From: a virus | DNA length: 64,000 nucleotides | Direction: 5' to 3' (one strand) | Virus record (IMG/VR): IMGVR_UViG_3300024299_000001 | Span: 1-64,000 of that record | In this document: positions 9,841 through 64,000 of the stretch, one piece after another | Position numbering within the stretch: position 1 is the first letter of the stretch | Layout: each line of letters opens with the position of its first letter | Notes under the pieces: generated by a model | The model's database searches: none | The model's input: only the letters and a program-made list of their open reading frames with translations | Told to the model about the DNA's origin: nothing | Position numbers and translations under genes: made by a program

Positions 9841-9956
9841 TTTACTAGCCCTCGCTATTTCCTGTAAAATAAATACGAGGGAAAGAATGTAGGTTGCATC
9901 CCTTTTCGACTTGCATTGTCTATCCCTCATAACTGTATAATTCATATCAGTTTTCC

Positions 9957-19068: not shown

Positions 19069-19386
19069 GTGGCTACTTCATAGCTACATTTGCTCTAAGC
19101 TACTGATTTTACTACATATAACCAGAGGTAAAATCGAGCTAAATTTAGGTCTTTTTATATTCTATTAACTCTTTTTATCTAACTACTTGTTTTTATTATA
19201 TATATTAATAAAATTGAAAGAATTAAGAGAAATATAATATAATAGAAATACAAGGTTGTAAAAGACCTGGGGTTATTGTATATATAGGCTACGGTGTATG
19301 TATTATTGATCCTTTTTACCCTTCTGTAGCTTAAAAGGATAGAAAAGTTTTTATTGAAATTAGCTCATGCTCTTCAAAAAAGGACA

Positions 19387-41693: not shown

Positions 41694-41963
41694 TTACCTC
41701 AGTACCATCAAAACTAGATTTGGTGTACCAGCAGACGCTTTAGCGTAAAATATAGTCTCACCTTTAGCTTGTGCTATATCTATATTAAAAGTTTGATTTG
41801 CTAAAGTTAAGCCATTTACTGTACCTGCTGTAGTATCAGATATATAAAATGCTGTTCCGTCGTCTACCCAAAAACTAATTGACCCGCAGCTTTGTGAAGC
41901 ACCTAGCGATATAGCAGTGTAGGTACTTGTGTTTAGCGCTGTTACGACCAGAGGTTGAATCAT
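41694..41963 (-). CDS. Small beta-rich structural protein
   Basis: 89 aa. Its ATG overlaps the stop of the giant gene. Confidence 0.5.
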   Translation of the reverse strand: MIQPLVVTALNTSTYTAISLGASQSCGSISFWVDDGTAFYISDTTAGTVNGLTLANQTFNIDIAQAKGETIFYAKASAGTPNLVLMVLR

Positions 41964-44900
41964 AATGTACTCCTTTGTTTTTCGTACTTGTTTGGTTTAA
42001 AAGTTTGCTTCAAATTTCTATTTAGCCATTTGCCAGTTATATAAGGTATCAAGAGCTTGGGCTTAGAAGTATACACTGCATTGTTGTATGCACGTATCTT
42101 GTCTGCTAAGTCCATTAATATTTCTGGGTCTTGCTTATATAGTGGCAAAGTGTAAAATCTGTTGTAGCGTCGTAGTATGTCAGACCGGTCTGCAGTGTAC
42201 TCTCTACGTTCTTGCGTCTCTGACCATTGACGGTCACGGATAGCCGAGAGTCTTGACGGACTGAATGAGAAGAGTCTGAGTATAACTTCATACGGTGTGC
42301 TCTTCAGTGGTGTCGTACCGTGATACACAGGTGCATATGAACCAGTAGTAAGTCCTTCAGTAAACTCTCGTTTACCCTTGATGATATTACCCAGTGCTCT
42401 AGGTGCTAAGTCCTCAAGTCCTTTCTCAGTTTCACCAAATGTGAAGTGCTCGTACGCTTTGGCAAAGTCTGACCATATGGCAAGTGGTGCACCACCAATC
42501 TCTATGACCTTCTTAGGAAATGGACTATTCATCTGGAGTGATCCAGTCATGTCTATTCCAGTTGTTGCACCAATTAAACCTGTACGAGCTATAGTATCTG
42601 ATCCAGTTAAGTCTTCAATAAATTGGTAGAACCTTTCTTCTGGGTCTTCGTGTCCTGGCCACATAGCTTTGATAAGTGTAGTTAACATAGTAGCTGGTAC
42701 TCCAGCCAATAGAGCTGGCGCCATCAGCATATACAGTGGCGCAATAATCTGTTTCTTGTTAAGTCCAAGGTCAAGCATGTTCAGTATGTAGTTGTGCTGA
42801 AACTTCATAAATGTAAAGGGCAAGTCAAGTAGTCGTATCTTCTGGATAACCCAAGGCTTGGCTGCTTTACCATATGTACCATGAGCTTGACTTGATATTT
42901 CTTTGGCATGCTGCAGCAGTTCTTTATGCGCTTTCTCAATCAGCTTGGGGTCTTTAGAAGAGTTCAAGGTAGTGTTAATTCTCTTATACATCTCCTTATC
43001 AGACTGTCTTAGAGCTTTATAAGCAGCAAATATAGTTGTAGCACGATTCACCTTCTCAGTTGCTCCAAACATGACCATAGCGTGTTTTAGAATCTCATTA
43101 AAGACTCTAGAACCTATACCTTGTATTACACGAGCAGCCTCATAGTTGAAATTTGCTTCATCCCAGCCTTGACTTGTTATGTAGTCAAATATCGCCTTAT
43201 CTTCAGCTGATAACGTGCCTGAACCAACCAGACTATGTATACCTAGTTTCTTAGATAAGCCAGCTCTGTATTTTGTATACTGAGTAACACTGTTTGCTAC
43301 ATGCTTTCCAGACTGTGCAAGATTTAAGCCAGTGTAACCAGTAATTGTAGCAGGTACAGCAAGTACCATATTTGTCAAGTTGACTGCTGCTGAACTTACA
43401 CGACCACCTAAGTACATGACGACTGCTAAAGCTTTGAAGTAACCAACAGCTCTGTCAAACCCTGTATCAGGCTTTAAGAAGAACTGCATGTATAAACGTG
43501 TTGCTTTATATAATCCTTTCTGGGTAGTAGGATCAATTGCTTTTTTCTTTACTTCAGTCAAGTAGTCCGTGTACGTGCCTTTCTTGTTAGTCTTCTGCCA
43601 GTCTTTAAATGACGTTTCACGACCTGTAAAAGCTAGGAGCATGTTACGTGTTGTTGTACGACGTGCTTCACCAGCAGCAAGTCGCTGTGCGTAACTTGTA
43701 AAAGCTTTATTCATGTCAGTCTCGAAGCCAGCGTAGTATCTTTTAGATCGCTGTTTACGTGATGTCAGTCTACCTTTTATCTTATACACGTCTGCAATGT
43801 TCTGCGCCATTTGATTGTGTATAGACTGCAGTACTTTAGTATCAGCGTCTTTCTTAACATTTTCTTCTGCGTTCTTAAGTAACGAGTCCATAGATGTTAT
43901 GAGCCCAGGAACATCAAAGATCACATCAGTAGGTGTAGGAGTTACTTTTATACTTACGTCATAACCGAGTGCTTTAAGACGTCTTGCTTCCACACCAACT
44001 GGCATTCTTGTATTAATCAACTGACGTGTCTTATTTACCCAAGGAGAAGACAATACGTTCTGTGGCAGATACCCTGAGTAAGTCTTTGTCACTAACTTAC
44101 CGTTTGAGTGCTCCGCTTTTAGAACATAGGCTTTACTCTGTCGTTCTCTAGGAAAGTAAGTACCTCGTAAGTCGCCTATCCTTGTTATTAACTGGCTAAT
44201 GGCGAGCTGCCGTGTTTTGCCTTTGTCATCTGTATATTGTGCTGTAGGAGCTTTAAGTCCATTCTCTTTGGCACTTGCAACTTGGCGTCTTAGCTCTTCT
44301 GTTAGTAGTGTAAAGCCTCGGTCAGTCAACAAACGTGCTTCTTTCACCATGTCCAGAGATGCTTGATTGAACTTGCGTTTCTTGAGCATCTGCTGCTCGA
44401 ATGATATCATCTTGCGTGTGGCTTCTTCTTCAGTCTTAGCTCTTCCAACAACTTTGTTAGATGGGTTCATCACTAGCCATGTAGTCTTCACCACTTTAGC
44501 GTTCTCAGTCTTTGTCACTGTGCTCTTAGTCTTTACTGAATATCCTCTACCTGTTGCATCTGTCTGCAGTAAGTAGTCATTAGCAATCTTGTAAGCTTTC
44601 TTGTAGCCACTAGTCTTCTTAAGATTCTTAATCAAGTTAGTCCAGTTACCGAGCACGAACTTCTCAATAGTATATTTAAGGTTATCTTCTCGTAATGCAT
44701 GACTCATAACCTTCTTGGCTTGTGCACCACGTCTCAAGTAATACTCAGGAGAGTTAAACAGTAAGCCCATGATACCGATGTTCTGCTCATGTGCTTTCCT
44801 TGTGAAGCCGTCACTTTCATCAAGCTTGTCAGATTCGTCAATCACGTTGTTGAATAGCTTAGCAATCTTAGCACGTAAAGGCACTTTAGAGGTTTCTTGA

Positions 44901-47900
44901 TCTTTCATCACGTCTCTAAAGAGCTTCTCTGCCTCTGCCTTATTGTCACCCAATATCTCGCCATCTAGTTTAGCTTGTTCAGCTTTAGTACGCACCTTAG
45001 CTGCGAGTGGTACTTTATCAGCAGATACGGTGTCGATAAGCTCTTGATTAAACTCAAACGAATTAAATTCTTTACCTGCTTTTGCGTAGTCTTTTATCTT
45101 GGTTGTAGTTAACTTACCACCGCCATATGGTTTAAATAACTTAGTAATAGTTTGTGGAAGATACTCTGTGTACTTCTTTACTATACCATCAACTATTTGA
45201 ATACCTTCAGTTGAGTCATATATCCATTTACCATCAGCATCTTGTCTAAAATTACTAGGCCAACCTTCTATAGCTGCTACATGATAAGGAGTCTTTGCCC
45301 AGATAAGTTTTGTGTGTCCTAGTGCTACGGCTTCCATAACCGCTCGTTTAAGAGCTAACTGAGTAGAATTGTCTTTAAATGGAAGATCGGGCTGTGCTCT
45401 AAGACTTTTTTTAGCTAAGAATGCTGGTTCTATAAGTTTTTCCATAACTTTTGAATCACGAATTATACTTTCTACGTCTTGTACAGAGATAGATTTACGT
45501 ACGTCTCTAGACAATCCACGTATTATATTAATCGCTAAATCTTCTGCGTCTACGTAAATAGCGGGACTATATGGACCAAAAGGACCAAAGAAACGTCCTT
45601 CCACGTGTATTTTAAAGTTTCTTTTTACGTCTTTATCATCTAAGTTTTTCTTCGTTATAGGAATAGTATCGTGCATCTTATTGACTATATAGTTTACATA
45701 ATGTTTAACTTTGGCATTTCCAGGTTCAGTTAACTGCCTTAGTTTAAGCGTATTTTTATCATATGTTTTTTTATCAGTATACCCGTACTTCTTTGCGTCT
45801 TGATGAGTATCAGACTGAATCTCGTGTATATATAATCCGTCACCTATAGAAGATACACGTAAATGTACTACTTCATTTTCTAACCTAAAGTGTTTACCTT
45901 TTTTACTAAGTTCAGTGTCTTTTATAGCTGGAATTTGTATAATTATCTCTTGGTAGTCTTTTAAACCTGTGGCTGTTGGTAAAGTAACATAGTCAGCTTC
46001 AACAGGCGCATTTCTATAAGCATCGCTAAATAAGGCGTCTTGTACCTCAGTTAAGTAACCTTGATCTTGTACAGCGTCTCGAATAATTCGCCAGTCTTCT
46101 ACTAAGTCTTCGTCAGCAAGTAAAAAGTCTTTGCTTTGTTTACTCATTAAGTCAGAGCTAATTGGAGCTAAACTATCTCTAAGAGAATTACTGTCTAAAG
46201 ATGTGTCGTTTAAAACATTAATTAAAAGATGATCCCGTACTTCAGGATATACACCTAAATTGTCTAACTTATCACGAATTATGTCTCTGAATACTATATA
46301 CTTATCATCCACAGCTACAATTAGTGTAGCAAAAGTATAAGACTCGCCTTTATTAAAATCACCATTTATATCTGGATACTCAGTTTCATTAATAGGCTTT
46401 GTTAAAAGTTCATTAACTCTATTAACAGCAGGTCCCGAAAACCCACTAGCTCGTTCAGCTATATAGTCTTCTGGATTTATACCTTCTTCATGTAACTGAT
46501 CAAATAGTGTTATATCGCGACCACCTAGTACAGTCTCATCCATTCTTGCTTTTAGGCCGTACTTAGCTAAGTGGTCCATAACTTGCTGCTTAGTAACTTT
46601 GCCTTTCTGTTTCTGCATCCACTCACGTAAATTAGAAAAGAAGAACTCTTCTTTTACATGAATCGGCATAGACTTGTTTGTCCAAGACTTAAATGTGTTA
46701 AGCCAGTTTTCAGGAGTCGCTTTACCTGGACCCTTAGCTTGTATGAAGTCGTCTTCAAGTCGTGAAGAAAACTTAGGTGCCAACTTAGAAGCTTTAGGTT
46801 TCGTTGGCGGTTTTAAAGGCAGTATATCAGCGTTCTTTCTGTCTTTGGCTTTCTCTAGTACGGTAATATTTCCAGGTGTTGTCATACCACCCTGAGGCTT
46901 AGCTTTATAACCACCAAAAGCGTCATCATATACTTTTGCAAAAGCTATCATGCCAGAAGTTAAAAAATCATATCGTTGTTCTAACTCAGCTTTTAACTTC
47001 GTGTACTCCCTAAATTTAAAAATACCTATTTCAGCTGTTAAAGCTTGCTTAGCATTCCATATTTTCTTTCTAGCTTGTACGTCAGTATCTTCAGCTTTTA
47101 TACCTGTTGCAGCGTCCCAAATTTTAAAAACTTCAGGTCGCATAGCATAATAAACTCGATCAGCTACTTCTACAGGAGTAATTGCAATTCTGTCGTTTAC
47201 CGACGTTTTATCGTAAGCCGACTTTGCAGGGAATTTTATTATTTTAGAAGCTAAGGGAATATCATTACGTTTTTTAACTACAGTTTGATTTAGTATTTTT
47301 TGATCCCATATAACGTAGTTAAAAGTTTTTCTTTCGTATCTTTTATACCGCGTCCAACCATCAATGAAACGTAAACCTGGAATACCAAATTTTTTAAACT
47401 CTAATGACGCAGCTTTATCTGATCCAAGCGCTTTAGATACGGCTCTGTATATATAACTACCTAGAGTATTATTATTTATACGCCGCATGTGAAGCTTGTT
47501 TTTGTATGGCACACTGTTTTTTCTTTGTACACTGTTAATAAGCTTGTGCATCTTTGCTCGTGCCATTGGTTTTTGTTGACCTAATGTTCTATCCCAATGA
47601 AAAAGTTGACTTATAGCAGGCGAAGGCATTTCTAACTTATACAAAGACGCGTCTTTATTAGTTGAGCGCGTAAAGTTTATCTTAGCTTGTTTAAGTTTCC
47701 AAGCATTTATAAGATGCCCTGCTTGATCATATAAAGGCAGTAGCCGTGCATTTTCAAAAGATGCTTGATCACGACGTAAGGCTTCAAGTTCAATATCTAA
47801 ATACCACAAAGCATCTTCATATATTTCTTGTGTGTCGTGTATATGTGTAGTACCATTAAATGCAAATCCTACATATGCAAGTGCTATATCTTCAGCAGTA

Positions 47901-50900
47901 TTAGCGTCAACAAACTGGCCGAATAAAATTTTAGTATTATATGCAGTAGGATTGAACTTAATTTTCTTGCCATTTACTGTTACACCTGTTATATTATACG
48001 CTGGAAACTGAAAATACTTATAGTAGTCTAATCCAGTAGCCTTCATTTGGGCCCCATAAAAACCCCAACCATAAGTTTGTACGCCTGATCCAGTACTCAT
48101 TTTATCTAAACGCGGTCTACCGTGTTTAAATCTTGATTCTTTTTGCCAAGTAACTGGACTGCCATGATATACTCTAGACGCAAGTGGAGCTGAACTTGTT
48201 AGTGTAGTATGTCCAAGCTTATTTCTGAGAATGTTACCGACGATCAAACCCATCTCATATCCAGATAAGTTCTCGGTCATGCCTAACTTACGTTTCAACC
48301 AAGCTTTAAGCTTGAAAACCATCTCTTTATAGAACGGGAGCTTTGTGTTAGCTTCATTCTGGATGTAGTGCATCAGAGTTTCTTCTTCCCATACTTCTGG
48401 TTTACTAGGATACTGTTCCTTTACCCAGTTATGTATATCGAGCAGGACTTTATCTGTCTTGATTCTCTTGGCTGCTGACGCTATGAAGCTGTTATACATT
48501 GCTTTGAATTGCTTGTCTGAAGCCAAAAGTAGATGACCGCCTTCATGGAGTATAACACCCTTGGCTCCACCAGCTCTCACAAGATTCTCAAGCACTAAAT
48601 ATAGCTTGCCTTTCCAGTAAACACCAGCAACTCTGTTCTTTTCACCTTTGGAGTACTTAGGATCGTCAAAGTCAAGTTCCTGAGTTGAGTCATATTCTTC
48701 GAGGTTAAACTCTTTCTTCACTCCATCTGGTAAGTCTTCCTGGTAGTCTACTGCCTCTACTTTTGACAGGGGGTCATCGATACCCATGTCTTGCATATCC
48801 TGCACAACTTGTGACTCTACGCCTCGAATTTTTATTTGTTCAGCTTTAGTTCTTTTAATGACTTTTTTCTTAGGTTTGGAGCCTTTCTTAGCTGGTTTCG
48901 AGCTCTTTTTAGCTTTCTTAGTAGTAGCGCTAGTCTTCTTCTTTTTAGTCGATTTTTGGCTATCTATAGGCTCCGACTTTTCTACTTTTTTCTTAGCTTC
49001 GCTCTGTGATTCAAGCTCGCGTATTTTATCTTCTATTTGTTTAGCAAATTCAGGGTCTTTCTTCTTATACTCAGTCAGCATACCTTTTAATTCAGCTATG
49101 CGCTTGTTAATAGCTTTAACAGATGGAGTACCACCAAAGAACCTATCAATAGCTGCACTCATTTCTTTTTTATCGGTGATAGGAGAAGATTCTTCTTTTT
49201 TAGCTTCGCTCTGTGATTTCTTAAGGTTCATTGTAGCATGCAGACGCTTTACTTTTAAATCATGAATTATCTTTTTTGTATCAGTTATAACGTCTTTATG
49301 TGCGCCACCTTCTTTGGCATGCTTTAATACATACTGCTGCCCGGCTATCTTGGCGTTAATTTTATCTAACTCAGATTGTTCTTTTGATATTACTTTTGTG
49401 TCTTTATTCTTTGGCTTTGGAAGCTTGGTACTCTTCTTTTTTGTCTTTGGCTTTTCTACTTTCGTCTTCTCTTTAGACTTAACCTGGCCTTTCTTATCTT
49501 TTGTAATTGTCTTCTCTTTGAACTTGGGTTTCCAGTCAATTGGTACCCAGCGAACTCTGCCGTCATCAAACTCAGCTCGTTTTATAAAACCTTTTTTCTC
49601 AAGGACTTTAAATGTCTGTGCAGTAACACCAGTTTTAGGACGCTCTTCTTTTTCCATGGCGTCAATGGCTTTTTGATTAAGCCACTTGAAATTACCAACA
49701 ATTTTCTTACCATCCATAATTACAGGATAAGGCTTATAATCGTTTTCATCCAGGAGAGATTCCTGTATTTGACCTAAAGCTAGACGTTGAAATTTACTCA
49801 GAGGCTTTTGCTCGCTTGCTTCAGCAGCGTTAAACGGTGTAAACTCTTTCTCTGTTTCATTCGATTGTACATATGGGCCAACTTTAGTCTTAGTATTTTG
49901 TTTTTTAAGCTGAGCTGAATATACTGTACTTGCAAACTCCGCTTGCATTACTTGTACTTCTTTTTTGTCTTTTGGTAGTCCTGTGTCATTCGTTTTTTTA
50001 TTTACATACGCAGTAAAGCTGGAGTGCTTCTTAGCAAAAGTTAACTTTTGAGCAAGAGACATCTTACCCCATTTTATAGTATCTGGCACAGGTAGTATAG
50101 AGTCTTTGTCTTTTACTTCTTCTGTCTCTTTCTTTAAGCCCTTAGTCTCGACCTTAATACTCTTCATATTAGCTTCGCCACGTAACTCATTCTTCTGAGC
50201 TGCTGAGTATCCTTTCCAGTCTTCTTCTGTTACGTTGGCAAGCTTGATTACTTCAGCATCAGATAGCTTCTTCGGCTTAGGTGTTTTCTTGGGTGCAGCT
50301 TCTGCTTCACCAGTGTCTTCACGTATAACAAAACCACCCTTAACTTGCTGAACTTTAAACTTTTTCTCTGGATCAAGCTTCCGTATCTTAAGAGCACCTT
50401 CTGCTTTTTTCTTTGTTGTATATGGCTTAGTACTACGTGCAGGAAGTAAGTCACTTTCAAGCATGTCACTTAAGTCTTCTTCAGTGATTACTTCTTCTGC
50501 ATCTGTGGTTTCTTCAGTTTCTTCTTCCTCTGTTTCTTCTATTGTTTCTTCTTCAGCATTCTCAGCAAACTGAGTAGTAGTTGGTTCTTGCTGTACTTCG
50601 TCTTGAATACTGTCAGGTACAGATAAGTCTTTTTTAATACCTGACTTAGTTGCTGCTACAAATGCACCAGCACCGCCTATAGCACCACCTGATACACCAG
50701 ATTCTACTATACGTTTTATATTCTCAGGTGTCAGAAACTTCTCATCTGTATTAGCAACAATATTAAGTATTGAACTTACTTCCTGACCAGCTTCCTGTAA
50801 CATTTCTGATGGTATATTTGTAAGCAGTTTTTTAGCAGCACGTTTTAAGTATGACCCAGGCATGCCTTTAGCAATAGCACCTACAAAGTCGTCAACTAAA

Positions 50901-51787
50901 CCGATATTGCCACCTGCGAGTTCCATAAGACCAGAAAGAACGCCAAAACCTAGTGAAGACATAGGAGCGTCTACGCCGTGCTCAGTCAAAAGCTCTCCGT
51001 AATTAAGACCTGCTTCAAGCTGAGATACTGTACCAACCATACCAGCTTTAGTAAGCTTCGCAACAGTTTTACGACCGCTAGCCTTCATATAGCCTTTAAG
51101 TAAGGCTTTTTCGAGTTGTTTCTCAGTAGCCTCTCGTGCAGTTTCTTTTATGACCTTATTTTTGATTTGGTGTGCAACTGCTGCCTTAGCTTTTTCTCTG
51201 ACCATTTTTCTCAAGCCATGTTTTACTACAGAGTATCCGACACCAGCAGATAGAGTTGTACCGATAATTGTTTCAGCTATAATAGGAACTTGGGATGCAA
51301 TTAAACCTTGAAACCAATCTACTCCTGTTCCTATACCTTTTACTTCATCAAGACTCAGAGTAGGATACTGACTTGCTTCGTCTTCGTACTGCGCGTACTT
51401 ATCCATACTAAAATCTTGAACAGCACTACCAGTGTCTTTAACAATGTCTATACCAAGTTTTTCTCCTGCGTACTTTGCTAAAGAACCAAGCACACCACCA
51501 AAGCCAGCCACACCTTGTTTAGTCGTAGCTATACCTTGTTTTAGACCGCGCTCTACATCTCCTAAGCGCAGCTTATTTGCTTCAGCTTGACGCTGTCTTA
51601 AAAGCTGGTGCTGCCAGTCTTCTTCATTAATACCAGACATAGTACGCGCGATTTGACCAAAGGGAACGCCTTGCTCAACAAGTGGTCGAATATCTACACC
51701 TTGATTTACTGCTAGACCTATAGCGATCTCTTGATCTGACATACCTTCTTGTAAGGCCGTCATATAATTTTCAGGAGTAAAGGGCAT
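41960..51787 (-). CDS. Giant (3275 aa) multidomain virion, ejection or polyvalent-type protein
   Basis: Single uninterrupted ORF with an RBS. It has hydrophobic Gly-rich N-terminal segments, an acidic linker and a Lys-rich region of about 550 aa. HEGGH lies at aa 1081 and YHGSP...YGWGFYGA at aa 1207. C-terminal TM helices are present. Confidence 0.85.
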   Translation of the reverse strand: MPFTPENYMTALQEGMSDQEIAIGLAVNQGVDIRPLVEQGVPFGQIARTMSGINEEDWQHQLLRQRQAEANKLRLGDVERGLKQGIATTKQGVAGFGGVLGSLAKYAGEKLGIDIVKDTGSAVQDFSMDKYAQYEDEASQYPTLSLDEVKGIGTGVDWFQGLIASQVPIIAETIIGTTLSAGVGYSVVKHGLRKMVREKAKAAVAHQIKNKVIKETAREATEKQLEKALLKGYMKASGRKTVAKLTKAGMVGTVSQLEAGLNYGELLTEHGVDAPMSSLGFGVLSGLMELAGGNIGLVDDFVGAIAKGMPGSYLKRAAKKLLTNIPSEMLQEAGQEVSSILNIVANTDEKFLTPENIKRIVESGVSGGAIGGAGAFVAATKSGIKKDLSVPDSIQDEVQQEPTTTQFAENAEEETIEETEEEETEETTDAEEVITEEDLSDMLESDLLPARSTKPYTTKKKAEGALKIRKLDPEKKFKVQQVKGGFVIREDTGEAEAAPKKTPKPKKLSDAEVIKLANVTEEDWKGYSAAQKNELRGEANMKSIKVETKGLKKETEEVKDKDSILPVPDTIKWGKMSLAQKLTFAKKHSSFTAYVNKKTNDTGLPKDKKEVQVMQAEFASTVYSAQLKKQNTKTKVGPYVQSNETEKEFTPFNAAEASEQKPLSKFQRLALGQIQESLLDENDYKPYPVIMDGKKIVGNFKWLNQKAIDAMEKEERPKTGVTAQTFKVLEKKGFIKRAEFDDGRVRWVPIDWKPKFKEKTITKDKKGQVKSKEKTKVEKPKTKKKSTKLPKPKNKDTKVISKEQSELDKINAKIAGQQYVLKHAKEGGAHKDVITDTKKIIHDLKVKRLHATMNLKKSQSEAKKEESSPITDKKEMSAAIDRFFGGTPSVKAINKRIAELKGMLTEYKKKDPEFAKQIEDKIRELESQSEAKKKVEKSEPIDSQKSTKKKKTSATTKKAKKSSKPAKKGSKPKKKVIKRTKAEQIKIRGVESQVVQDMQDMGIDDPLSKVEAVDYQEDLPDGVKKEFNLEEYDSTQELDFDDPKYSKGEKNRVAGVYWKGKLYLVLENLVRAGGAKGVILHEGGHLLLASDKQFKAMYNSFIASAAKRIKTDKVLLDIHNWVKEQYPSKPEVWEEETLMHYIQNEANTKLPFYKEMVFKLKAWLKRKLGMTENLSGYEMGLIVGNILRNKLGHTTLTSSAPLASRVYHGSPVTWQKESRFKHGRPRLDKMSTGSGVQTYGWGFYGAQMKATGLDYYKYFQFPAYNITGVTVNGKKIKFNPTAYNTKILFGQFVDANTAEDIALAYVGFAFNGTTHIHDTQEIYEDALWYLDIELEALRRDQASFENARLLPLYDQAGHLINAWKLKQAKINFTRSTNKDASLYKLEMPSPAISQLFHWDRTLGQQKPMARAKMHKLINSVQRKNSVPYKNKLHMRRINNNTLGSYIYRAVSKALGSDKAASLEFKKFGIPGLRFIDGWTRYKRYERKTFNYVIWDQKILNQTVVKKRNDIPLASKIIKFPAKSAYDKTSVNDRIAITPVEVADRVYYAMRPEVFKIWDAATGIKAEDTDVQARKKIWNAKQALTAEIGIFKFREYTKLKAELEQRYDFLTSGMIAFAKVYDDAFGGYKAKPQGGMTTPGNITVLEKAKDRKNADILPLKPPTKPKASKLAPKFSSRLEDDFIQAKGPGKATPENWLNTFKSWTNKSMPIHVKEEFFFSNLREWMQKQKGKVTKQQVMDHLAKYGLKARMDETVLGGRDITLFDQLHEEGINPEDYIAERASGFSGPAVNRVNELLTKPINETEYPDINGDFNKGESYTFATLIVAVDDKYIVFRDIIRDKLDNLGVYPEVRDHLLINVLNDTSLDSNSLRDSLAPISSDLMSKQSKDFLLADEDLVEDWRIIRDAVQDQGYLTEVQDALFSDAYRNAPVEADYVTLPTATGLKDYQEIIIQIPAIKDTELSKKGKHFRLENEVVHLRVSSIGDGLYIHEIQSDTHQDAKKYGYTDKKTYDKNTLKLRQLTEPGNAKVKHYVNYIVNKMHDTIPITKKNLDDKDVKRNFKIHVEGRFFGPFGPYSPAIYVDAEDLAINIIRGLSRDVRKSISVQDVESIIRDSKVMEKLIEPAFLAKKSLRAQPDLPFKDNSTQLALKRAVMEAVALGHTKLIWAKTPYHVAAIEGWPSNFRQDADGKWIYDSTEGIQIVDGIVKKYTEYLPQTITKLFKPYGGGKLTTTKIKDYAKAGKEFNSFEFNQELIDTVSADKVPLAAKVRTKAEQAKLDGEILGDNKAEAEKLFRDVMKDQETSKVPLRAKIAKLFNNVIDESDKLDESDGFTRKAHEQNIGIMGLLFNSPEYYLRRGAQAKKVMSHALREDNLKYTIEKFVLGNWTNLIKNLKKTSGYKKAYKIANDYLLQTDATGRGYSVKTKSTVTKTENAKVVKTTWLVMNPSNKVVGRAKTEEEATRKMISFEQQMLKKRKFNQASLDMVKEARLLTDRGFTLLTEELRRQVASAKENGLKAPTAQYTDDKGKTRQLAISQLITRIGDLRGTYFPRERQSKAYVLKAEHSNGKLVTKTYSGYLPQNVLSSPWVNKTRQLINTRMPVGVEARRLKALGYDVSIKVTPTPTDVIFDVPGLITSMDSLLKNAEENVKKDADTKVLQSIHNQMAQNIADVYKIKGRLTSRKQRSKRYYAGFETDMNKAFTSYAQRLAAGEARRTTTRNMLLAFTGRETSFKDWQKTNKKGTYTDYLTEVKKKAIDPTTQKGLYKATRLYMQFFLKPDTGFDRAVGYFKALAVVMYLGGRVSSAAVNLTNMVLAVPATITGYTGLNLAQSGKHVANSVTQYTKYRAGLSKKLGIHSLVGSGTLSAEDKAIFDYITSQGWDEANFNYEAARVIQGIGSRVFNEILKHAMVMFGATEKVNRATTIFAAYKALRQSDKEMYKRINTTLNSSKDPKLIEKAHKELLQHAKEISSQAHGTYGKAAKPWVIQKIRLLDLPFTFMKFQHNYILNMLDLGLNKKQIIAPLYMLMAPALLAGVPATMLTTLIKAMWPGHEDPEERFYQFIEDLTGSDTIARTGLIGATTGIDMTGSLQMNSPFPKKVIEIGGAPLAIWSDFAKAYEHFTFGETEKGLEDLAPRALGNIIKGKREFTEGLTTGSYAPVYHGTTPLKSTPYEVILRLFSFSPSRLSAIRDRQWSETQERREYTADRSDILRRYNRFYTLPLYKQDPEILMDLADKIRAYNNAVYTSKPKLLIPYITGKWLNRNLKQTFKPNKYEKQRSTL

Positions 51788-56533: not shown

Positions 56534-56627
56534 ATACCCAAAATATAACTAAAATGTTTCCCCATACTAGTAAGCATACCACTAGAGCTCCGATCGTTAT
56601 TGCAATACAGCCAATGAGCTGTTCCAT
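56499..56627 (-). CDS. Small TM peptide (42 aa; hand-called)
   Basis: MEQLIGCIAITIGALVVCLLVWGNILVIFWVY.... Its ATG directly follows the TGA of the upstream gene. Confidence 0.3.
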   Translation of the reverse strand: MEQLIGCIAITIGALVVCLLVWGNILVIFWVYETRQNSNKRY

Positions 56628-57398
56628 TCATACTGTCATCCTTAAAATTCTTATTTCATCATATTTGGAATAAGGTGGTTTATCTCCATATTTCCAAACA
56701 AAAGTTTCCACCTGTGGATCGTACATCCATAGATCCATGTTGTCATCAAGGATATGAGTGATTGCGTGTTTAATTATATCCTGCCCTTCATACCTTAATA
56801 TTACATCAGACCTTTTGCCAAAGACCAGATTGCCGTAGTTCCACCTTGACAACCATCCAGTTGTTTCATTAACAAAGTCATCGCAGTCGTGGGATTCTTC
56901 AATATATAATCGTCTGTCTGCTGGATTAGCAACGCAAACAGGTTTAATCATCTCTGGTTTAATTAACCTGAAAATCATATCATCTTCGTAAATATCAAAG
57001 GGATGAATACCTGTGAGTGTTCTTATCTTTTGCCTTGCTTCATAAACTGATATTTCTCTCATTTCACCAAGATCAGGTACAGGAGGATTTAAAATGTCTG
57101 CATACCCTTGAGTATTGAACATTGACCAATCACCGTCCAACCATCCGACAAGATTTGGCCCTGTTACTATTCCCATTGGATTAAGAATTACAGAGATTAA
57201 AAGATTTGGATCAAGCAATGGATTAGGGCATATTTCTTTTGCACAAATAGCAACTATTTGGAGTTGAATACTATTAGGAATACCAAAACAATTTTGAGTA
57301 TCAGCATACAATCGTTTAGATCCATTGTAATTATAGTACCCACCGTCTTCAAGATAGTTTTTAATTGTCTTTACCATTGCTTGTTTTATTGTTGTCAT
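56628..57398 (-). CDS. Cassette-associated 256-aa protein with Cys..His..Asp arrangement (possible papain-like fold)
   Basis: It is a paralog of 1..573. It contains ESHDCDDFVNETTGW, KHAITHIL and MYDPQ. The start may be the MVKTIK Met at 57377. Confidence 0.7.
   Translation of the reverse strand: MTTIKQAMVKTIKNYLEDGGYYNYNGSKRLYADTQNCFGIPNSIQLQIVAICAKEICPNPLLDPNLLISVILNPMGIVTGPNLVGWLDGDWSMFNTQGYADILNPPVPDLGEMREISVYEARQKIRTLTGIHPFDIYEDDMIFRLIKPEMIKPVCVANPADRRLYIEESHDCDDFVNETTGWLSRWNYGNLVFGKRSDVILRYEGQDIIKHAITHILDDNMDLWMYDPQVETFVWKYGDKPPYSKYDEIRILRMTV
56802..57101. repeat. Conserved arm 2, copy B
   Basis: Partner of 1..300. Confidence 0.85.
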
Positions 57399-57635: not shown

Positions 57636-58496
57636 TTATTGGAACTGATAACGGATTATAACAATACCTGAGCCGCCCGCTGCTCCGAGCCCGCTAAAAG
57701 ACCCGCTTTCACCGTTTCCGCCGCCACCGCCGCCTAAATTATCTGTCCCTGCTATTGCCTGTGTCGTACCGTTAGCACCAGCACCACCACCACCAGTACC
57801 ACCAGGAGCCACCCCCCCTGATTGAGCACCACCGCCGCCGCCGCCGCAATAAACAACGGCACTTCCCGTTATTGAGTTAGATGTACCATCTCCACCATCT
57901 CCAGGATTACCTGCCCCGGAATCTTCTCCAGCTTGAGAGTGTCCTCCACCGCCTGCACCAAAACCAACACTGGCATTTCCAGTTCCTCCATCACTACCTT
58001 GATCTCCTGTACCTTTGGCATTACTACCTGTGCCCAAACCAGTACCGCCGCCGCCAGAACCTCCATTGCCGCCAGGATAGGTTGTTCTCGTACCACCAGA
58101 ACCGCCACCATTAGCAGTTATAGAGCTAAACACTGAGTCTTCACCAGTGCCAGCAGGACCAGTACCATTAGGGCCACCCGCACCACCATCTCCAACTGTG
58201 ATTTCATACGCCTGGGCTGTTACAGCAAAACCAGAAGCAGTTCTATAACCACCAGCACCACCACCACCCGCAAAAGCTGCTCCTCCTCCTCCACCACCAC
58301 CTGCAACAACCAAATATTCAACAGTCCCAATACTACCAAGAGTTGTTACTGTAAAATCAGTACCAGTATCAGCAAGAAGAAATTCATGTACTTTATAATC
58401 ACCGTCTGTGGTTATGGTTCCACCTGTGGCTGTCATGTAGGACACAGCGCCTTTAAGACGAGCCAACACCGCTTTATGGGCTAATTGAATAGTCAT
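57636..58496 (-). CDS. Distal tip B: glycine-rich domain protein
   Basis: The start at MTIQLAHK (ATG rc 58496..58494) lies 1 nt after the upstream TAA. Long GGGG/GGxG tracts are present. Confidence 0.75.
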   Translation of the reverse strand: MTIQLAHKAVLARLKGAVSYMTATGGTITTDGDYKVHEFLLADTGTDFTVTTLGSIGTVEYLVVAGGGGGGGAAFAGGGGAGGYRTASGFAVTAQAYEITVGDGGAGGPNGTGPAGTGEDSVFSSITANGGGSGGTRTTYPGGNGGSGGGGTGLGTGSNAKGTGDQGSDGGTGNASVGFGAGGGGHSQAGEDSGAGNPGDGGDGTSNSITGSAVVYCGGGGGGAQSGGVAPGGTGGGGAGANGTTQAIAGTDNLGGGGGGNGESGSFSGLGAAGGSGIVIIRYQFQ

Positions 58497-58818
58497 GTTA
58501 AACCTCCGGCGTCCAACCATTAGTTGTAATAAGCCAATCATCTGCTGTGTAGTATTGAAAGACCGCTATATCTCCGGCGGTTGACAAGTTCGTTAGGTTC
58601 TTACCTTCAGCGTTTGTTGTGCCATCCATTAAGTATCCGTCAGCAGCGTTTGTATCAACGATAACTTCTATTGCTCCGAGTGTTATAATGGTGAAGTTCA
58701 TTCCTGCTACCATTAGCGGGAGTTGACAAGTGCCGGTTACGTTACAAACAAACGTACCACCGTAAAGATTAGCTCCGGTAAAGTTCGCTGCGAAATTTGC
58801 TGCTGAGTCTGTGACTGG
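58473..58818. repeat. Conserved arm 1, copy B
   Basis: Partner of 2955..3300. Confidence 0.85.
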
Positions 58819-59352
58819 TGTTAATGATGCTGTACTACCTGTTATTATACCATTCACTTCTAACTCTGTGGCTGGACTCGCAGTCCCTATGCCTACGTTG
58901 CCTGTATCACCCTCAACAACCAGTTTATCAGTATCAACCGCAAAATCATCTCCGGCATCGTTGTGAAGGTTTATGTTCACCCCTGCCCCTGTTGATTCGA
59001 TTGTGATATCTGCTGCGTTTGAGATTGAAGTTAGAGCGGTTGTGCCAGTTATGTCCGTATTAGAGCCTTTTCCAGCATAAAGAGTGTCTAAATAAGTTTT
59101 AAGAGTAGCTTTAATATTAGCCCAAGTAAGTTTCTTAAGAACACTAGAAGCAGCACTATCAGAAATACCGATAACATCAGCGTCAACTGGAGTTGTCTTT
59201 CCGGTAGCTGTGTTAATTGGTTTTGCTAAAGCATTACTTAAAGTTACTTTTTTCTGTAATGGTGAGCCACCAGGATCGTTGACTACATATATTAAATCAT
59301 CGCCTGTTGGAGCAGTGTCTTCTGTCAGTGCTGTTAATTTTGAGTCAGCCAT
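58498..59352 (-). CDS. Tail fibre B (short shaft) sharing the 109-aa C-terminal domain with fibre A
   Basis: 284 aa with RBS AGGAG. The N-terminus ADSKLTALTEDTAPTGDDLIYVV is typical of phage fibre N-termini. Confidence 0.8.
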   Translation of the reverse strand: MADSKLTALTEDTAPTGDDLIYVVNDPGGSPLQKKVTLSNALAKPINTATGKTTPVDADVIGISDSAASSVLKKLTWANIKATLKTYLDTLYAGKGSNTDITGTTALTSISNAADITIESTGAGVNINLHNDAGDDFAVDTDKLVVEGDTGNVGIGTASPATELEVNGIITGSTASLTPVTDSAANFAANFTGANLYGGTFVCNVTGTCQLPLMVAGMNFTIITLGAIEVIVDTNAADGYLMDGTTNAEGKNLTNLSTAGDIAVFQYYTADDWLITTNGWTPEV

Positions 59353-59374: not shown

Positions 59375-62300
59375 TTATTTACTAAAAAACATTTTTAAAT
59401 AATTAACTGGAAGTATGCTATCAACCGAGTCTACAAAGAAACTGAAAGGATTACCAAAATTTGAAAACATATTCTTTGTTACTCCTGGGATAGAATTATT
59501 AATATTATCTGCACCTATATGTGTAGATAAAAATAAAGCTGCAGCTACATCAAACGGTTTATCCATTGCATTATTTTTAATTACTTTAAGTATTCTTATC
59601 GCATATTTTGTAAAGCGTAGCAAGCCGATACTATTTAAGTATTCCACCATACGGTGGGTTGGGACTGCAAAATTAACAAATTCTTCTATTGCTTCGGCAA
59701 CTGCTTCTTCATGAGACATCTGTTCATCACCCCGGGCACTTGAAGTGTAATAATGGTACAACACGTGTCTTGCTACAAAATCGGTCATTTTAACGGCATT
59801 GTTAAGAACCTGGTATGCTTGGGTGTCTTGAGTCAGAAACGTAACCTTTCCTACGTTCTGCACGATCTGAGGTAGCTTATCTGTTAGCTTAGTAACTCCC
59901 TTCTCAAATTCACTTGGAAAATTTGAACCAGAAATAGTAGTATTAACATCATCAATAAACTGAGGCATTAGACCTGCTTCAATGGTTTTTGTTGTTGGGT
60001 TAATTTCAATAGTATTTTTAAGACGCATTATTTGGTTATCCAAGTCAAGTAATGACTGAGGAGCAGCACCTTTACGTTTAGCCAGCATTCTACGTTTTAC
60101 TTCAAGATCAGCTAATTTCTGTATATCAGCTTGGTATTTGAGTCCCATAGAGAAAGCTTCCCAAGCTGATTTAATTATAACATTAAAAGGTATTCCTTTG
60201 CTTCTAAGTACAAATAAGTTACTGCCAAAGTTATTTAATGTAACTGATAGAGACCTTACTATAATATTATTCTTAGCAAGTTTGGCCAACTCAATCATAG
60301 CCCCTTCTAAAGTATGTGCTCGGCGTACTCCTTTTACCTCTCCACCAAACAGACTCACTATGCCAATAAGAAGTCTTTCTAGTTTAGCTCTATCTTCAGG
60401 ATTCTTTGCAAAGGACTCCACTATGTTGTACTGCCGGTAACCAAAAGAAATATCTAACACGTCTTTAGGAATAAACATTGAGGGTCCGCCCCAAACTGTG
60501 TCAACAGTTTGTTTGGCTTTATCTGGCATCATATGGTATATGTCTCTTAGTTTTGGGTCAGGTGAGTTGGGCCCAATTTCTATGAAACCTCCAGGATTAC
60601 TCTGGTAATCAGCATCAAACATATCTTTTAAAAGGACAATTAGTTCTTCATTAATTATTGGTGTCCTTTCTTTATCAATTATCTGCCCAGCCATGGCACC
60701 CATGATTTTATCATACTCATTAACTTTTTCTAAAAAATTATCTTTAGTAGTTTCAGCCATCATGTATCTGTATTTTGTGGTAATTCCATTTTCATCAACT
60801 TGTGGAATCATCTGATTACTTGGTTTTAATTCAGGCTTAATATTAGGATTAGCCATATCACGAATTATCTTTGCTTTATATTTAATTATTTTAGCATTAT
60901 TCTTTTTACCTTCTTTAGTGGATATATCCATTTGCTGAGCTATTGTAAGTGGATCAGTACCTTTACCTCTGTTACCGGTATAAGAGAAAATAGTTGATAG
61001 TAAATCATTTATACGACCCGTTTGAGCAGTGTACACATAAATGTCTATATGTTTTAATGGATCTGCCTCATCCCGATCAATAGGAAATTCACTTCTACTA
61101 TAGCCTATTTGTGCAAGTTCCTCTTCTTCAGCTAAAGTACCATATTGGTAATTAGTACGGGTATTAACGATTTCTTTAGTATACCCTTTAATAAATTTAC
61201 GCTCATCTCCGTTAAAAGCTTTCTGTAAAGAGTCCTCTTTAAGAACTTGATGTAATTCAAAGAATTTATTAACTCCTTCAGGATCAGTATCAATTAATTC
61301 TTTAAATACCTGCCTGGAAGCTTTATCGGTATGTTGCAAAGCATATAGTGAACCAAGTTGATTAATTAGTTCTTCAGCCCTTAAAACCTCAGCGGCTGTT
61401 AATGGAACTGTTACATCATCTCTAGCTTTCATTTCAGCAATAACCAGGGCATTCTGAAAAACCTCTTCACCTGTTCTGCCTCTACTATGAATCATAAAAT
61501 GCCCCATGGCATCGGCTGCTTGCTTATAATAAGTTAAATGAGGCGCTAGAGCTGTATCAGTTTTAATTTGGTTAAGTACATTATTGATTGCTTTTCTTAA
61601 TTCATTTGGATCACCTAAAACTTTACTAATTCCATCCATACTAAGAGAATCTAATAAAGCAACTGTATCAGGCTTTAAACCAATTTTAGTTACTACTACT
61701 TTTTCTGCATCAGTAAGTTTGGTTTGCTTTGGATCCCGGAACTTAGTAAACAGTTTACCTGCTATACCGGAGTACTGTGCAATAGTAAATTCTTTAGCAC
61801 TGTCCAACCAAACTCCTCTTCTGTTCAGTAATTGATATATTGGGGCAAGTCGGTCAGTACGTCCTCTTAATTCTGTAACTAAAGATTTAAATAACCCATA
61901 CTCCAGTCTATCATAATCATTAGTCATCTTTCGTAGCTGATCACCAGCTAAAGAGTCTTTATCTTTATGGGTTTTAACTGCAGTCTTTAAACCTTTAACA
62001 ATTTTTAAAGGCCCTGAAGTAGCAGCTTTCTTGATATACTTATTAGAGAGATCAGCTACTTTTCTGTATTGTTGTTCAAATTTACTTTGGGTTTCAAATA
62101 ATTTATTTTTATGGTTCGAGTCTATTTTAGAAAGTAGAATGGCTAAGCGCTCTAGTTCTCGATCCATTCTTAAGTCATTTTTACTGGCATTAAATTTACT
62201 GTAAAAGAAATCAAATATCTTTTGAGCAATATTAAGAAGAGTCTGTTGGATATTACCTGCCTGAATATCTGACCAAGTACTGGTTGTATACATTCTTTCA

Positions 62301-64000
62301 GGTAGTGCTATACCAGATAAAGCTTTCAAGAAATTTTCATTAGTTAAACCAAGAATAACAAATTCAGCTAAATGGGGAGAGTGTCCTGATTCCCGGGTAA
62401 TCTTTGTTGCAGTGTCTGTTTGTTCAGATGCTTTGCGTTGAGCAGCAGTCCTGGTGTTACGAAAGATATAATTATATCTTTTCTGGGCAGCTTCAATTTC
62501 ATATTGATTTGCAGGATCATTCAACCAAGCAGCATTTACAGTTGGGTCGTTTAAAAAAGCTCTATAATCAAGCTTTCGGTAAGCCAGTTCATATAAGGTA
62601 TCCACTTGAGCACCTAATCTTGCATTAAGGCGTAAACCAGCTTCAAGTACCGGATGTAATAATTCATGGGTGTATACTTCACCAGAAGACATCCGGATAC
62701 CATTATTTAGGGCCCCAGTTATTGGGGCTGCAATTTGATTAGTCATAAAGACCTGACGAGTCTGGGATACAAATTTTCCTTCTGGTTCAGCATAAGGATT
62801 AGTTTTCATATACAGATCAACCGGCTGGAACACTGAATGTATCAAAGTCTTTAGAATTCGTTGCAGGTGATTATCATGCTGTACACTGTCTGTTACAGTG
62901 CTTTCACCCTTAATGTCATTGTAAACCTCTAATACATTCTTACTGCTTATTTCCTGAGCCCTGCCATATTTAGCTGGATCAATGGAAAGAGTGGAATCAT
63001 CTTTTGAACCAAGAGAATCGTTCGAATCTTCTTTAAGCATCTCAGCAATAAAAGCTTCTTCCAGTTCTTGTACAGAAAGATTATAATCAGCAAGAGCTTG
63101 TTGGTTAATTGTTGCTTGTGAGTACAAACCAGGCTCTGTTTTTGTTTCTACTATATTTACACCACCTATACTGGTTTGAGGAGCATTACCAGTTTTCCAT
63201 GCACCATCTCTATGAAAATAATGGTTAAAAGCAGTAACTGCATTCAGAACTCTGGCTTTATTTATTTTGGTTACTCTTACAATTTCCTTAATACCAAATT
63301 TCTTTTTACGTTTACCTTTCTCAGGAACACCATTTACTGTTTCATCCACTACTTGCTGTACTGATTTAGTCCAAGTTTTATTGTTGTAAGAAGAAACACC
63401 TTCTGTTAAACCCATTTCTTTAAAAACTTTTTGAAGTACTCTGTCTTTCTTTTCTTCTCGGGCAGGGTTTTCATTTGCGAATTCTGTAAAAGCTTCTATG
63501 GAAGTGGTAAAGGCTTCTACAATTTTTTCAGGTATACTGTCCAAAGACATATCGGTATAGAGGCTTTTATTTATAATTTGACCCATTGCGCCACCATTGG
63601 TAATGGCAACATAAAAACCATCATGAACTCCTAATACACCAACTCCCTGGTTATTGCCCATTGCTCTATTAGCAGAACTAGAATCATAATTTTGCACACT
63701 TATAATAACCGGTTTTACACTGGGATCTCCTAGTGTACTGAGTTTCTTTGCTCTATTATGCATTGGCTGGTAATGTACATTACTACCATCTGGTTGATAA
63801 GACTGAGTAGAGGTTCCTTCTACAGCAGTAGTATATTCAAGATTTGTAGCAAATTCAGCTAAAGGAACTTTCCCACCTAAAGAAGATTTTAAAACAGGAA
63901 AGATTTTCTTTATTCTATCACGAATTTGTTGTAACTGCTCTTGGGTCATTACACTACCAAATTTAGCAACATGCTCTTGAACTAACATTTTCTGCGCAGC
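59375..64000 (-). CDS. C-terminal 1541 or more codons of a giant virion-type protein; reading frame open to the right window edge
   Basis: There is no stop in the 12 nt upstream of the first Met and no RBS before it. HELLH is encoded at 62654..62668, and GVLGVHDGFYV lies near the window edge. Confidence 0.8.
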   Translation of the reverse strand, partial: AAQKMLVQEHVAKFGSVMTQEQLQQIRDRIKKIFPVLKSSLGGKVPLAEFATNLEYTTAVEGTSTQSYQPDGSNVHYQPMHNRAKKLSTLGDPSVKPVIISVQNYDSSSANRAMGNNQGVGVLGVHDGFYVAITNGGAMGQIINKSLYTDMSLDSIPEKIVEAFTTSIEAFTEFANENPAREEKKDRVLQKVFKEMGLTEGVSSYNNKTWTKSVQQVVDETVNGVPEKGKRKKKFGIKEIVRVTKINKARVLNAVTAFNHYFHRDGAWKTGNAPQTSIGGVNIVETKTEPGLYSQATINQQALADYNLSVQELEEAFIAEMLKEDSNDSLGSKDDSTLSIDPAKYGRAQEISSKNVLEVYNDIKGESTVTDSVQHDNHLQRILKTLIHSVFQPVDLYMKTNPYAEPEGKFVSQTRQVFMTNQIAAPITGALNNGIRMSSGEVYTHELLHPVLEAGLRLNARLGAQVDTLYELAYRKLDYRAFLNDPTVNAAWLNDPANQYEIEAAQKRYNYIFRNTRTAAQRKASEQTDTATKITRESGHSPHLAEFVILGLTNENFLKALSGIALPERMYTTSTWSDIQAGNIQQTLLNIAQKIFDFFYSKFNASKNDLRMDRELERLAILLSKIDSNHKNKLFETQSKFEQQYRKVADLSNKYIKKAATSGPLKIVKGLKTAVKTHKDKDSLAGDQLRKMTNDYDRLEYGLFKSLVTELRGRTDRLAPIYQLLNRRGVWLDSAKEFTIAQYSGIAGKLFTKFRDPKQTKLTDAEKVVVTKIGLKPDTVALLDSLSMDGISKVLGDPNELRKAINNVLNQIKTDTALAPHLTYYKQAADAMGHFMIHSRGRTGEEVFQNALVIAEMKARDDVTVPLTAAEVLRAEELINQLGSLYALQHTDKASRQVFKELIDTDPEGVNKFFELHQVLKEDSLQKAFNGDERKFIKGYTKEIVNTRTNYQYGTLAEEEELAQIGYSRSEFPIDRDEADPLKHIDIYVYTAQTGRINDLLSTIFSYTGNRGKGTDPLTIAQQMDISTKEGKKNNAKIIKYKAKIIRDMANPNIKPELKPSNQMIPQVDENGITTKYRYMMAETTKDNFLEKVNEYDKIMGAMAGQIIDKERTPIINEELIVLLKDMFDADYQSNPGGFIEIGPNSPDPKLRDIYHMMPDKAKQTVDTVWGGPSMFIPKDVLDISFGYRQYNIVESFAKNPEDRAKLERLLIGIVSLFGGEVKGVRRAHTLEGAMIELAKLAKNNIIVRSLSVTLNNFGSNLFVLRSKGIPFNVIIKSAWEAFSMGLKYQADIQKLADLEVKRRMLAKRKGAAPQSLLDLDNQIMRLKNTIEINPTTKTIEAGLMPQFIDDVNTTISGSNFPSEFEKGVTKLTDKLPQIVQNVGKVTFLTQDTQAYQVLNNAVKMTDFVARHVLYHYYTSSARGDEQMSHEEAVAEAIEEFVNFAVPTHRMVEYLNSIGLLRFTKYAIRILKVIKNNAMDKPFDVAAALFLSTHIGADNINNSIPGVTKNMFSNFGNPFSFFVDSVDSILPVNYLKMFFSK

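Follow-up and report, generated by a model that had tools for sequence, protein, structure and literature searches.

Coliphage N4 makes a giant virion RNA polymerase (vRNAP), gp50, of 3,500 residues. Structures are available for mini-vRNAP (2PO4, 3C2P, and 3Q0A) and for the near-full-length protein (9PNQ, 9PNR, and 11GP). Briefly, the N4 model involves packaging of the enzyme, its ejection, and transcription from hairpins (PMC4496689, PMC13434306). According to a 2026 structure paper, the C-terminal domain (CTD) of the N4 protein is an allosteric inhibitor, which autoinhibits the polymerase, and has an HExxH motif in its subdomain C1 (PMC13434306). The head of subdomain C2 was reported, also in 2026, without a structural homologue ('orphan-fold' C2). 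Previously, Iyer et al. (2017) described a 'highly conserved HEXXH' in N4 gp50 residues 2130-2448, and unified this region with zincin-like metallopeptidases; N4 vRNAP is packaged and was found unprocessed (PMC5512222). Here, we describe an open reading frame (ORF) at the right-hand edge of a 64,000-nt stretch of viral DNA, hereafter called the window, that corresponds to positions 1 to 64,000 of IMG/VR record IMGVR_UViG_3300024299_000001. We conclude that the ORF very probably encodes part of the vRNAP (a homologue of gp50) of a marine N4-like phage (Schitoviridae). This phage is uncultured, and its genome has 74,358 bp. We also find that the contig containing the window is an assembly mis-join of this phage and an unrelated one.

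Results

The window is the first 64,000 nt of one contig of 131,274 nt, and holds the 3' 43% of the vRNAP gene. Reading the minus strand, from the window edge to the stop codon (59375-59377), gives 1,541 residues. A preliminary description of the window had noted that the frame is open at nt 64000, and that the protein must be longer than 1,537 residues. This was borne out. In the full contig, the frame extends to an ATG at position 70186, with AGGA 5 nt upstream, and encodes 3,603 residues in total. A size of ~3,000-3,700 residues and a central polymerase domain are typical of the family, and the domain is central here, too (residues ~1240-2345, with the end placed by offset from N4 residue 2103). 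The predicted layout has the three parts of N4 gp50, in the same order: an N-terminal ejection or membrane domain, a T7-like polymerase domain, and a large CTD. The CTD starts with an HExxH module and ends in a conserved helical region that, in N4, is needed for encapsidation. N4 gp50 likewise has an HExxH module after the polymerase domain and the conserved C-terminal ~400 residues. Coordinates of individual features are listed in Table 1.

Table 1. Features of the vRNAP gene, and of the contig junction, with positions in the window.
Feature	Position	Strand	Basis or remark
C-terminal part of the vRNAP gene, residues 2063-3603	59375..64000	-	frame open at the window edge
Last ~283 residues of the T7/N4-type polymerase domain (palm, pre-motif C, motif C)	63152..64000	-	profile matches to 2PO4 and N4 gp50
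Pre-motif C, QNYDSSSANRAMGN, with conserved Asp D2168 (NYD)	63653..63694	-	corresponds to N4 TGDGMMM
Motif C, GVLGVHDGFYV, with catalytic Asp D2189 (codon 63620-63622)	63608..63640	-	aligned with N4
Putative zincin-like metallopeptidase (MPTase-type) module, residues 2435-2625	62312..62884	-	alignments, AF2 model, PMC5512222
HELLH (H2507, E2508, H2511), predicted HExxH metal-binding and catalytic motif	62654..62668	-	invariant in alignments A1, A2, and A3
EFVILGLTN, with invariant E2608, F2609, and N2616	62339..62365	-	alignments
Best-conserved part of the CTD, residues 3148-3546	59549..60745	-	homologous, by phmmer (E about 1e-30), to N4 gp50 3052-3444, which is within subdomain C2 of the CTD
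138-nt exact repeat inside a 256-residue tail-fibre-like gene	56790..56927	.	assembler's crossing point between genomes

Homology to N4 gp50 was found by several routes. The whole protein matches phrog_2206, 'virion RNA polymerase', at E=0 (1,048 bits); with just the part inside the window, the value is E 5e-226. A phmmer search of the PDB, using the C-terminal part, returned the N4 gp50 structures 11GP, 9PNQ, and 9PNR at E about 1e-31. With tblastn, 471 phage records were matched, all of them N4-like, and vRNAP annotations are among the matches listed. The best tblastn matches, covering the C-terminal 1,400 residues, are vRNAPs of marine N4-like phages infecting Vibrio (PJN101, VBP47, pVa5, and phi 1) and Pseudoalteromonas (pYD6-A), at only 26-28% identity. 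For the central domain, a HMMER search with residues 1240-2345, over 1.8 billion proteins, found 364 relatives. Most of the 150 relatives listed are 2,400-4,300 residues long. A profile made from the HMMER relatives matches N4 gp50 residues 1311-1992 with E 6e-73. Similarly, a family profile derived from a 14-sequence full-length alignment (A3) matches N4 gp50, in the PDB, with E 2e-126. The same profile reaches the mini-vRNAP crystal structures 2PO4, 3C2P, and 3Q0A at E 2e-41, over mini-vRNAP residues 316-992, which contain all four catalytic motifs. Through profile homology to 2PO4 only, the central domain would be expected to adopt the right-hand fold, with palm, fingers, and thumb.

A word-indexed homologue search with the central domain found only three proteins. 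A scan of viral contigs with the single protein returned only the same phage, and an alignment query was needed for relatives. Between N4 gp50 and the protein described here, identity is ~22-24% in alignable parts, and the polymerase domain is undetectable by pairwise HMMER. In addition, megablast of the vRNAP gene against the phage collection gave no nucleotide-level match. Since identity to the best matches is 26-28%, and a nucleotide-level match is lacking, the phage is assigned, on sequence grounds, to at least a new genus. It probably represents a new subfamily-level lineage. From the nearest relatives, its host is likely to be a marine gammaproteobacterium. The vRNAP itself is a divergent but ordinary new member of the well-known Schitoviridae vRNAP family.

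The preliminary description had likened a block near the window edge to the pre-motif C and motif C regions of T7/N4-type polymerases. Alignment with N4 gp50 (sequence from NC_008720) confirms this. Thus, D2189 in motif C aligns with gp50 D1948, which is D951 of mini-vRNAP, and the position is Asp in 138 of 138 relatives. The column of D2168, in pre-motif C, is Asp in 134 of the 138. The other motifs are 400-1,200 nt past the window edge, with motif B at ~400 nt and motif A at ~730 nt. Inspection of this upstream sequence, which the same description had proposed as a check, found all of them: ATGR (R1668), VEIDGQANG (D1820), and RKLAKNRAVGALYG (R1920, K1924, and Y1932). In profile alignments, the T/DxxGR segment FIATGRMQQ pairs with MTRVGRMQM (R1421) of N4 gp50, and motif A, PVEIDGQANGP, with YVEADGVTNGP (D1556). 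Motif B, VRKLAKNRAVGALYGSG, pairs with KRGIAKNPLTITIYGSG (R1663, K1667, and Y1675), and motif C with NTLKIFDGMNI. We confirmed that these N4 residues correspond to mini-vRNAP R424, D559, R666, K670, Y678, and D951. All of the catalytic residues of N4 gp50, from the T/DxxGR, A, B, and C motifs, are also present in the vRNAP described here. Across the 138 relatives, columns for the two Arg residues, the Lys, and both Asp residues are 99-100% conserved, and the Tyr is 72% conserved.

Distances beyond motif C are also as had been anticipated. The estimate was that ~1,400-1,500 residues follow this motif, as in N4, and that an HELLH sequence occurs ~300 residues after it. The actual values are 1,414 residues here, compared to 1,552 in N4 gp50, with HELLH 318 residues after the motif C Asp and at the coordinates that had been given for it. 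The pre-motif C sequence resembles what we take to be the T7 equivalent, SQDGSHL. Presumably, T7 RNA polymerase also has the same patterns in motifs A (DG..G), B (R...K.......YG), and C (HD.F). The T7 enzyme has 883 residues, reads double-stranded promoters, is not known to be packaged in the virion, and is without giant N- or C-terminal domains. N4 and T7 are also linked by a published structural superposition (PMC4496689).

The gene is surrounded by an N4 gene set. Upstream, it adjoins N4-type late genes matching phrog_2220, phrog_2050, phrog_1357 (major head), phrog_2120 (gp57-like), phrog_1216 (portal), and phrog_38 (TerL). The N4 gp50 gene heads the late (virion) block in the same way. 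The genome of the vRNAP phage also encodes both N4 RNAPII subunits (phrog_2166 and phrog_2051, homologues of gp15 and gp16), as well as an N4-type primase and exonuclease. In all, the RNAPII subunits and the N4-type head, portal, and TerL are common to the N4 genome and that of the vRNAP phage, which also has candidate promoter hairpins with the GGA loop of N4 (see below). The 74,358-bp unit falls within ~60-80 kb and is of typical schitovirus size. As a separate observation, the DNA polymerase of the N4-like phage (phrog_17) is split into ORFs of 318 and 544 residues (contig 109152-110108 and 110760-112394, plus strand), with an ORF of 221 residues between.

Towards the 3' end of the vRNAP gene, the CTD also matches phrog_19273, a family of unknown function with a profile length of 4,846 (window 59375-61740, P0001 residues 754-1474, E 2e-37). 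The C2 region of the vRNAP thus appears, by sequence, to have counterparts in a second family, whose phage proteins are larger still.

In the 131-kb contig, the 74,358-bp N4-like phage and an unrelated phage of 56,801 bp are mis-joined as a figure-8. One copy of a 138-nt exact repeat lies at the crossing point (Table 1). The other spans the contig ends, comprising the last 12 nt (131148-131159) and the first 126 nt (1-126). Hence, the order is repeat, 56,801 bp, repeat, 74,358 bp, repeat. The smaller phage corresponds to window 1-56801 and the larger to 56802-131159. Since the repeat is the crossing point, all sequence on its right-hand side comes from the vRNAP phage. The two blocks have different gene sets. 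In the first (1-56.8 kb), the head, portal, and TerL genes match phrog_334, phrog_156, and phrog_2. In the second (56.8-131 kb), the equivalents are the N4-type phrog_1357, together with phrog_1216 and phrog_38. For replication, block 1 has its own primase-helicase, DNA polymerase, and ligase; block 2 has its own DNA polymerase, ligase, and primase. An ORF of 3,275 residues is found in block 1, while the gp57-like phrog_2120 gene, vRNAP, and both N4 RNAPII subunits are in block 2. No paralogy was found between the gene sets of the two blocks. Note that a tandem dimer was also considered for the contig and rejected; the halves differ, and only short repeats are common to both.

Base composition differs in the same way. 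The GC content is 36.3% for the vRNAP phage and 40.5% for the other. Correlations of tetranucleotide usage are 0.88-0.99 inside the halves and 0.77-0.85 between them. The preliminary description, noting that the gene looked more AT-rich than its neighbours, was right in this respect (35.6-36.1% GC, against 40.5% for window 1-56801). The effect arises because the neighbours in the window come from another phage, and the vRNAP gene matches the composition of its own genome.

Other assemblies contain the phages separately. Two MEGAHIT contigs, assembled independently with k=141, are 74,499 nt long (74,358+141), carry an identical vRNAP, and consist of the vRNAP phage alone. In these, the 256-residue tail-fibre-like gene leads straight into the genes of 130.8-123.7 kb. 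A contig of 55,432 nt, from the same sample, has block 1 only. Furthermore, the length of a JGI contig that stops at the repeat, 56,939 nt, is exactly 56,801+138. Only the k=141 assemblies resolve the phages, because their k-mer is longer than the repeat (141 against 138 nt).

Separation of the two phages has consequences for promoter sequences. The preliminary description proposed that the polymerase would explain hairpins and ATTTACTATCA elements in the early region of the window (15.5-39 kb), and that sigma70 promoters there bear on the role of the polymerase. Neither idea stands, because the region belongs to the second phage. Hence, its hairpins, sigma70-like promoters, and ATTTACTATCA copies are uninformative with respect to vRNAP. 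Exact copies of ATTTACTATCA number three in the 17.9-19.0 kb interval, with one inside the vRNAP gene (60995-61005). Including those with one mismatch, there are six copies. This number is reached in 6 of 100 shuffles, and so is not clearly above chance.

The early region of the vRNAP phage begins near 90.7 kb of the contig, outside the window. Here, CCTCYGGYTATAT occurs four times, at contig positions 91,048, 91,606, 92,032, and 93,421. All copies are on the plus (coding) strand, upstream of small early ORFs. The elements, which span 91.0-93.4 kb, have the pattern CCTCYGG-YTATAT. The template-strand sequence is ACC-GGA-GGT or GCC-GGA-GGC, apart from one copy with an AGA loop, and the stems show A:T to G:C covariation. 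For comparison, N4 promoter P1 is GTTGC-TTC-GCAAC, at genome position 90, and P2 is GAAGC-TCC-GCTTC, at 559. The 3-nt template loop of P2, GGA, and its closing C:G pair are the same as in the elements of the vRNAP phage. The latter have C at template position -8, where N4 has G, and their stems are shorter than those of the N4 promoters. We regard the CCTCYGGYTATAT elements as probable, rather than proven, vRNAP promoters. Separately, an exact copy of CCTCTGGTTATAT, a promoter-like 14-mer of the vRNAP phage, was seen on the minus strand of the other phage, in a non-coding island (19116-19128, with its 5' end at 19128). For this pattern, which was defined after the fact, ~0.008 copies are expected by chance. 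The lone copy could reflect chance, or cross-talk between co-infecting phages.

The CTD begins with a predicted module of the MPTase type. At its N-terminus, the module has a helix and then a three-stranded sheet, followed by the helix that bears HExxH. After an insert comes a further helix, with an invariant Glu. The residues H2507, E2508, and H2511, and the downstream E2608, are invariant in three alignments (A1, A2, and A3). We regard E2608 as a candidate third metal ligand. The surrounding EFxAxGLxN motif is also found in N4 C1 (LNEFMAWGLAN).

Exactly one intact HExxH follows the polymerase domain in 132 of 134 relatives, which argues for a functional metal site. In 88 of the 134, including the vRNAP described here, the motif is in a single module ~300 residues past motif C. 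In the other 46, N4 included, that module is without HExxH (the N4 sequence is FQMVT, at about 2460). All 46 have an extra module, ~220 residues upstream, with an HExxH motif (HELVH at 2228 in N4). Hence, N4 gp50 has two modules, C1 (2124-2375) and a degenerate copy heading C2, whereas there is only one here. The closest metagenomic representatives (P0005-P0007) have the same one-module architecture. The head of N4 C2 (gp50 ~2404-2647) is homologous to the HExxH module of our protein, with E 6e-36 in a local hidden Markov model comparison, and has lost the motif. From these alignments, the head of N4 C2 looks like a decayed second MPTase copy. Note that the presence of HExxH in N4 vRNAP is already published; the pattern of one HExxH, with a decayed copy, is added here.

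We modelled residues 2380-2780 with AlphaFold2 (AF2), using a 32-sequence alignment. The predicted local distance difference test score (pLDDT) was 74.6 and the predicted template modelling score (pTM) was 0.68. The model has a helix at 56-70, strands at 77-83, 90-94, and 99-104, and a helix at 122-141 carrying HExxH. This predicted topology is that of the zincin core described by Iyer et al. (PMC5512222). The MPTase of polyvalent proteins described in the same work also has the later helix with an invariant Glu, and fusion to an injected giant protein, as is predicted here. A difference is the ~95-residue insert, in our module, between the HExxH and Glu helices. In Foldseek searches of BFVD, the module matched N4-like vRNAPs (E 3e-9 to 6e-6), the best being those of marine N4-like phages. 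Non-significant matches, at E 0.2-0.5, were to a crAss 'zincin protease' and SprT-like proteins. Assignment of the module as a zincin is thus a remote-homology claim.

Discussion

By analogy with N4, the capsid would contain a few copies of the vRNAP, which would be ejected along with the DNA. The enzyme would then transcribe phage early genes from small DNA hairpin promoters extruded by supercoiling. Products of the early genes would include the two-subunit RNAPII, leading to RNAPII-dependent middle transcription. Autoinhibition by the CTD may also apply, as in N4. Considered alone, the vRNAP is a routine annotation of a divergent polymerase from an uncultured marine schitovirus. Of the by-products of the analysis, the most useful is to have shown that two phages are joined in the contig.

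Several results weigh against assigning the ORF as a working vRNAP. With the central domain alone, phmmer gave no match in the PDB at E<=1, and no Pfam family was matched, at E<=0.1, by either the window part or the whole protein. Pairwise BLASTP to N4, in the polymerase region, reached only E 2e-5 and 23% identity. Without pairwise PDB or Pfam matches, the polymerase assignment depends on homology at the level of profiles. An AF2 model of the polymerase domain, from the single sequence, had a pLDDT of 35 and provides no direct palm fold. At the T/D position of T/DxxGR there is Ile (IATGR), in which the protein differs from N4 gp50. For the candidate promoters, the distance from the loop to the TGG after CCTCYGGYTATAT exceeds that in N4 by 3 nt, and hairpin stems are only 3-4 bp. 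Folded as single-stranded DNA, these hairpins were no better than shuffled sequence and gave no energy signal. One could argue, from the high divergence of the central domain from N4, the missing pairwise PDB match, and the Ile, that the protein is an inactive relic. It would then be an ejection or polyvalent protein, derived from a polymerase, that does not transcribe. The family does bear other effector-type domains, an MPTase in this case. We find this scarcely credible, since the protein has the full set of residues on which catalysis by N4 mini-vRNAP is known to depend, and relatives are near-invariant in the Arg, Lys, and Asp columns. Furthermore, the phage is without another way to start an N4-style cascade, yet has kept RNAPII and the hairpin elements. 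A different objection concerns the contig, which might be one real genome. If so, the vRNAP would serve the early region at 15.5-39 kb, and there would be two giant virion proteins. Logically, this would fit with recovery of the junction in both the contig of the window and a 97,263-nt JGI contig, where the order is vRNAP block, 256-residue gene, then genes encoding 120, 360, 488, 534, and 3,275 residues. The exact CCTCTGGTTATAT copy in the other half also fits. Conversely, a single genome would need to carry head, portal, and TerL genes twice over, in complete and unrelated sets, with a DNA polymerase, a ligase, and a primase or helicase set each present twice as well. It would also have the same 138-nt repeat at its start, crossing point, and end, and two halves of different GC and tetranucleotide composition. 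In addition, the k=141 assemblies separate the phages, and the 56,939-nt JGI contig is precisely the smaller phage plus one repeat. Complete-looking relatives in IMG/VR and GenBank are mostly ~66-79 kb, and the largest contig is 92.9 kb. We therefore hold the single genome to be very unlikely, and reject a real 131-kb jumbo N4-like phage on account of the two unrelated gene sets, the repeat, and the k=141 assemblies. The mis-join changes how any finding that treats the 97-131 kb contig as one N4-like phage should be read.

Within the vRNAP, the role of the HExxH module is a further matter of interpretation. The single module could be an active peptidase which, once injected, cleaves either vRNAP or a protein of the host. 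This would free the polymerase from its autoinhibitory CTD, and the metal site would be required for switching on these polymerases. We think such activity doubtful and, to our knowledge, no vRNAP has been shown to be a peptidase. Rather than an active peptidase, the module might be a structural metal site, or have a non-proteolytic function, for example as a docking or autoinhibitory CTD element. This is a serious possibility, though held tentatively. It would be consistent with the unprocessed state of packaged N4 vRNAP (PMC5512222), and with the allosteric mode of inhibition by the N4 CTD (PMC13434306). Searches of solved and curated domains point the same way. Foldseek comparison of the module with the PDB found no solved zincin, with N4 gp50 the best match (E 0.03). 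No Pfam family was matched by the protein at E<=0.1, and Pfam should include MPTase-PolyVal. Set against this, the H, E, and H residues and the downstream Glu are invariant in all three alignments. In the N4-type duplicated lineage, a copy without HExxH is always beside one that has kept it (46 of 46), a pattern expected for a catalytic site under selection. Finally, the modelled order of helix, three strands, and HExxH helix is the zincin core topology (PMC5512222). For either role, the one-HExxH rule in 134 vRNAPs, and the decayed copy in N4 C2, provide a concrete site-directed handle on the unexplained CTD.

Some further features of the 56.8-kb phage are worth recording. Its giant ORF of 3,275 residues (window 41960-51787, minus strand) is outside the N4-like phage and has no Pfam or PHROG match. 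This polyvalent protein belongs to the 56.8-kb phage, which is not N4-like. A gene for a 245-residue protein of the endonuclease VII / HNH type separates the major head gene from the structural gene that follows it (window 9208-9945, minus strand). This is likely to be a homing-endonuclease insertion.

Finally, segments of tail-fibre-like genes are common to both phages, with 82-96% nucleotide identity. The shared segments are 1-577 and 56802-57381, 2954-3302 and 58473-58821, and 56626-56916 and contig 130984-131274. The C-terminal 113 residues of two tail-fibre-like proteins, of 439 and 284 residues, are 95.6% identical. Such near-identical segments suggest that the two unrelated phages have a host in common, and exchanged receptor-binding parts recently.

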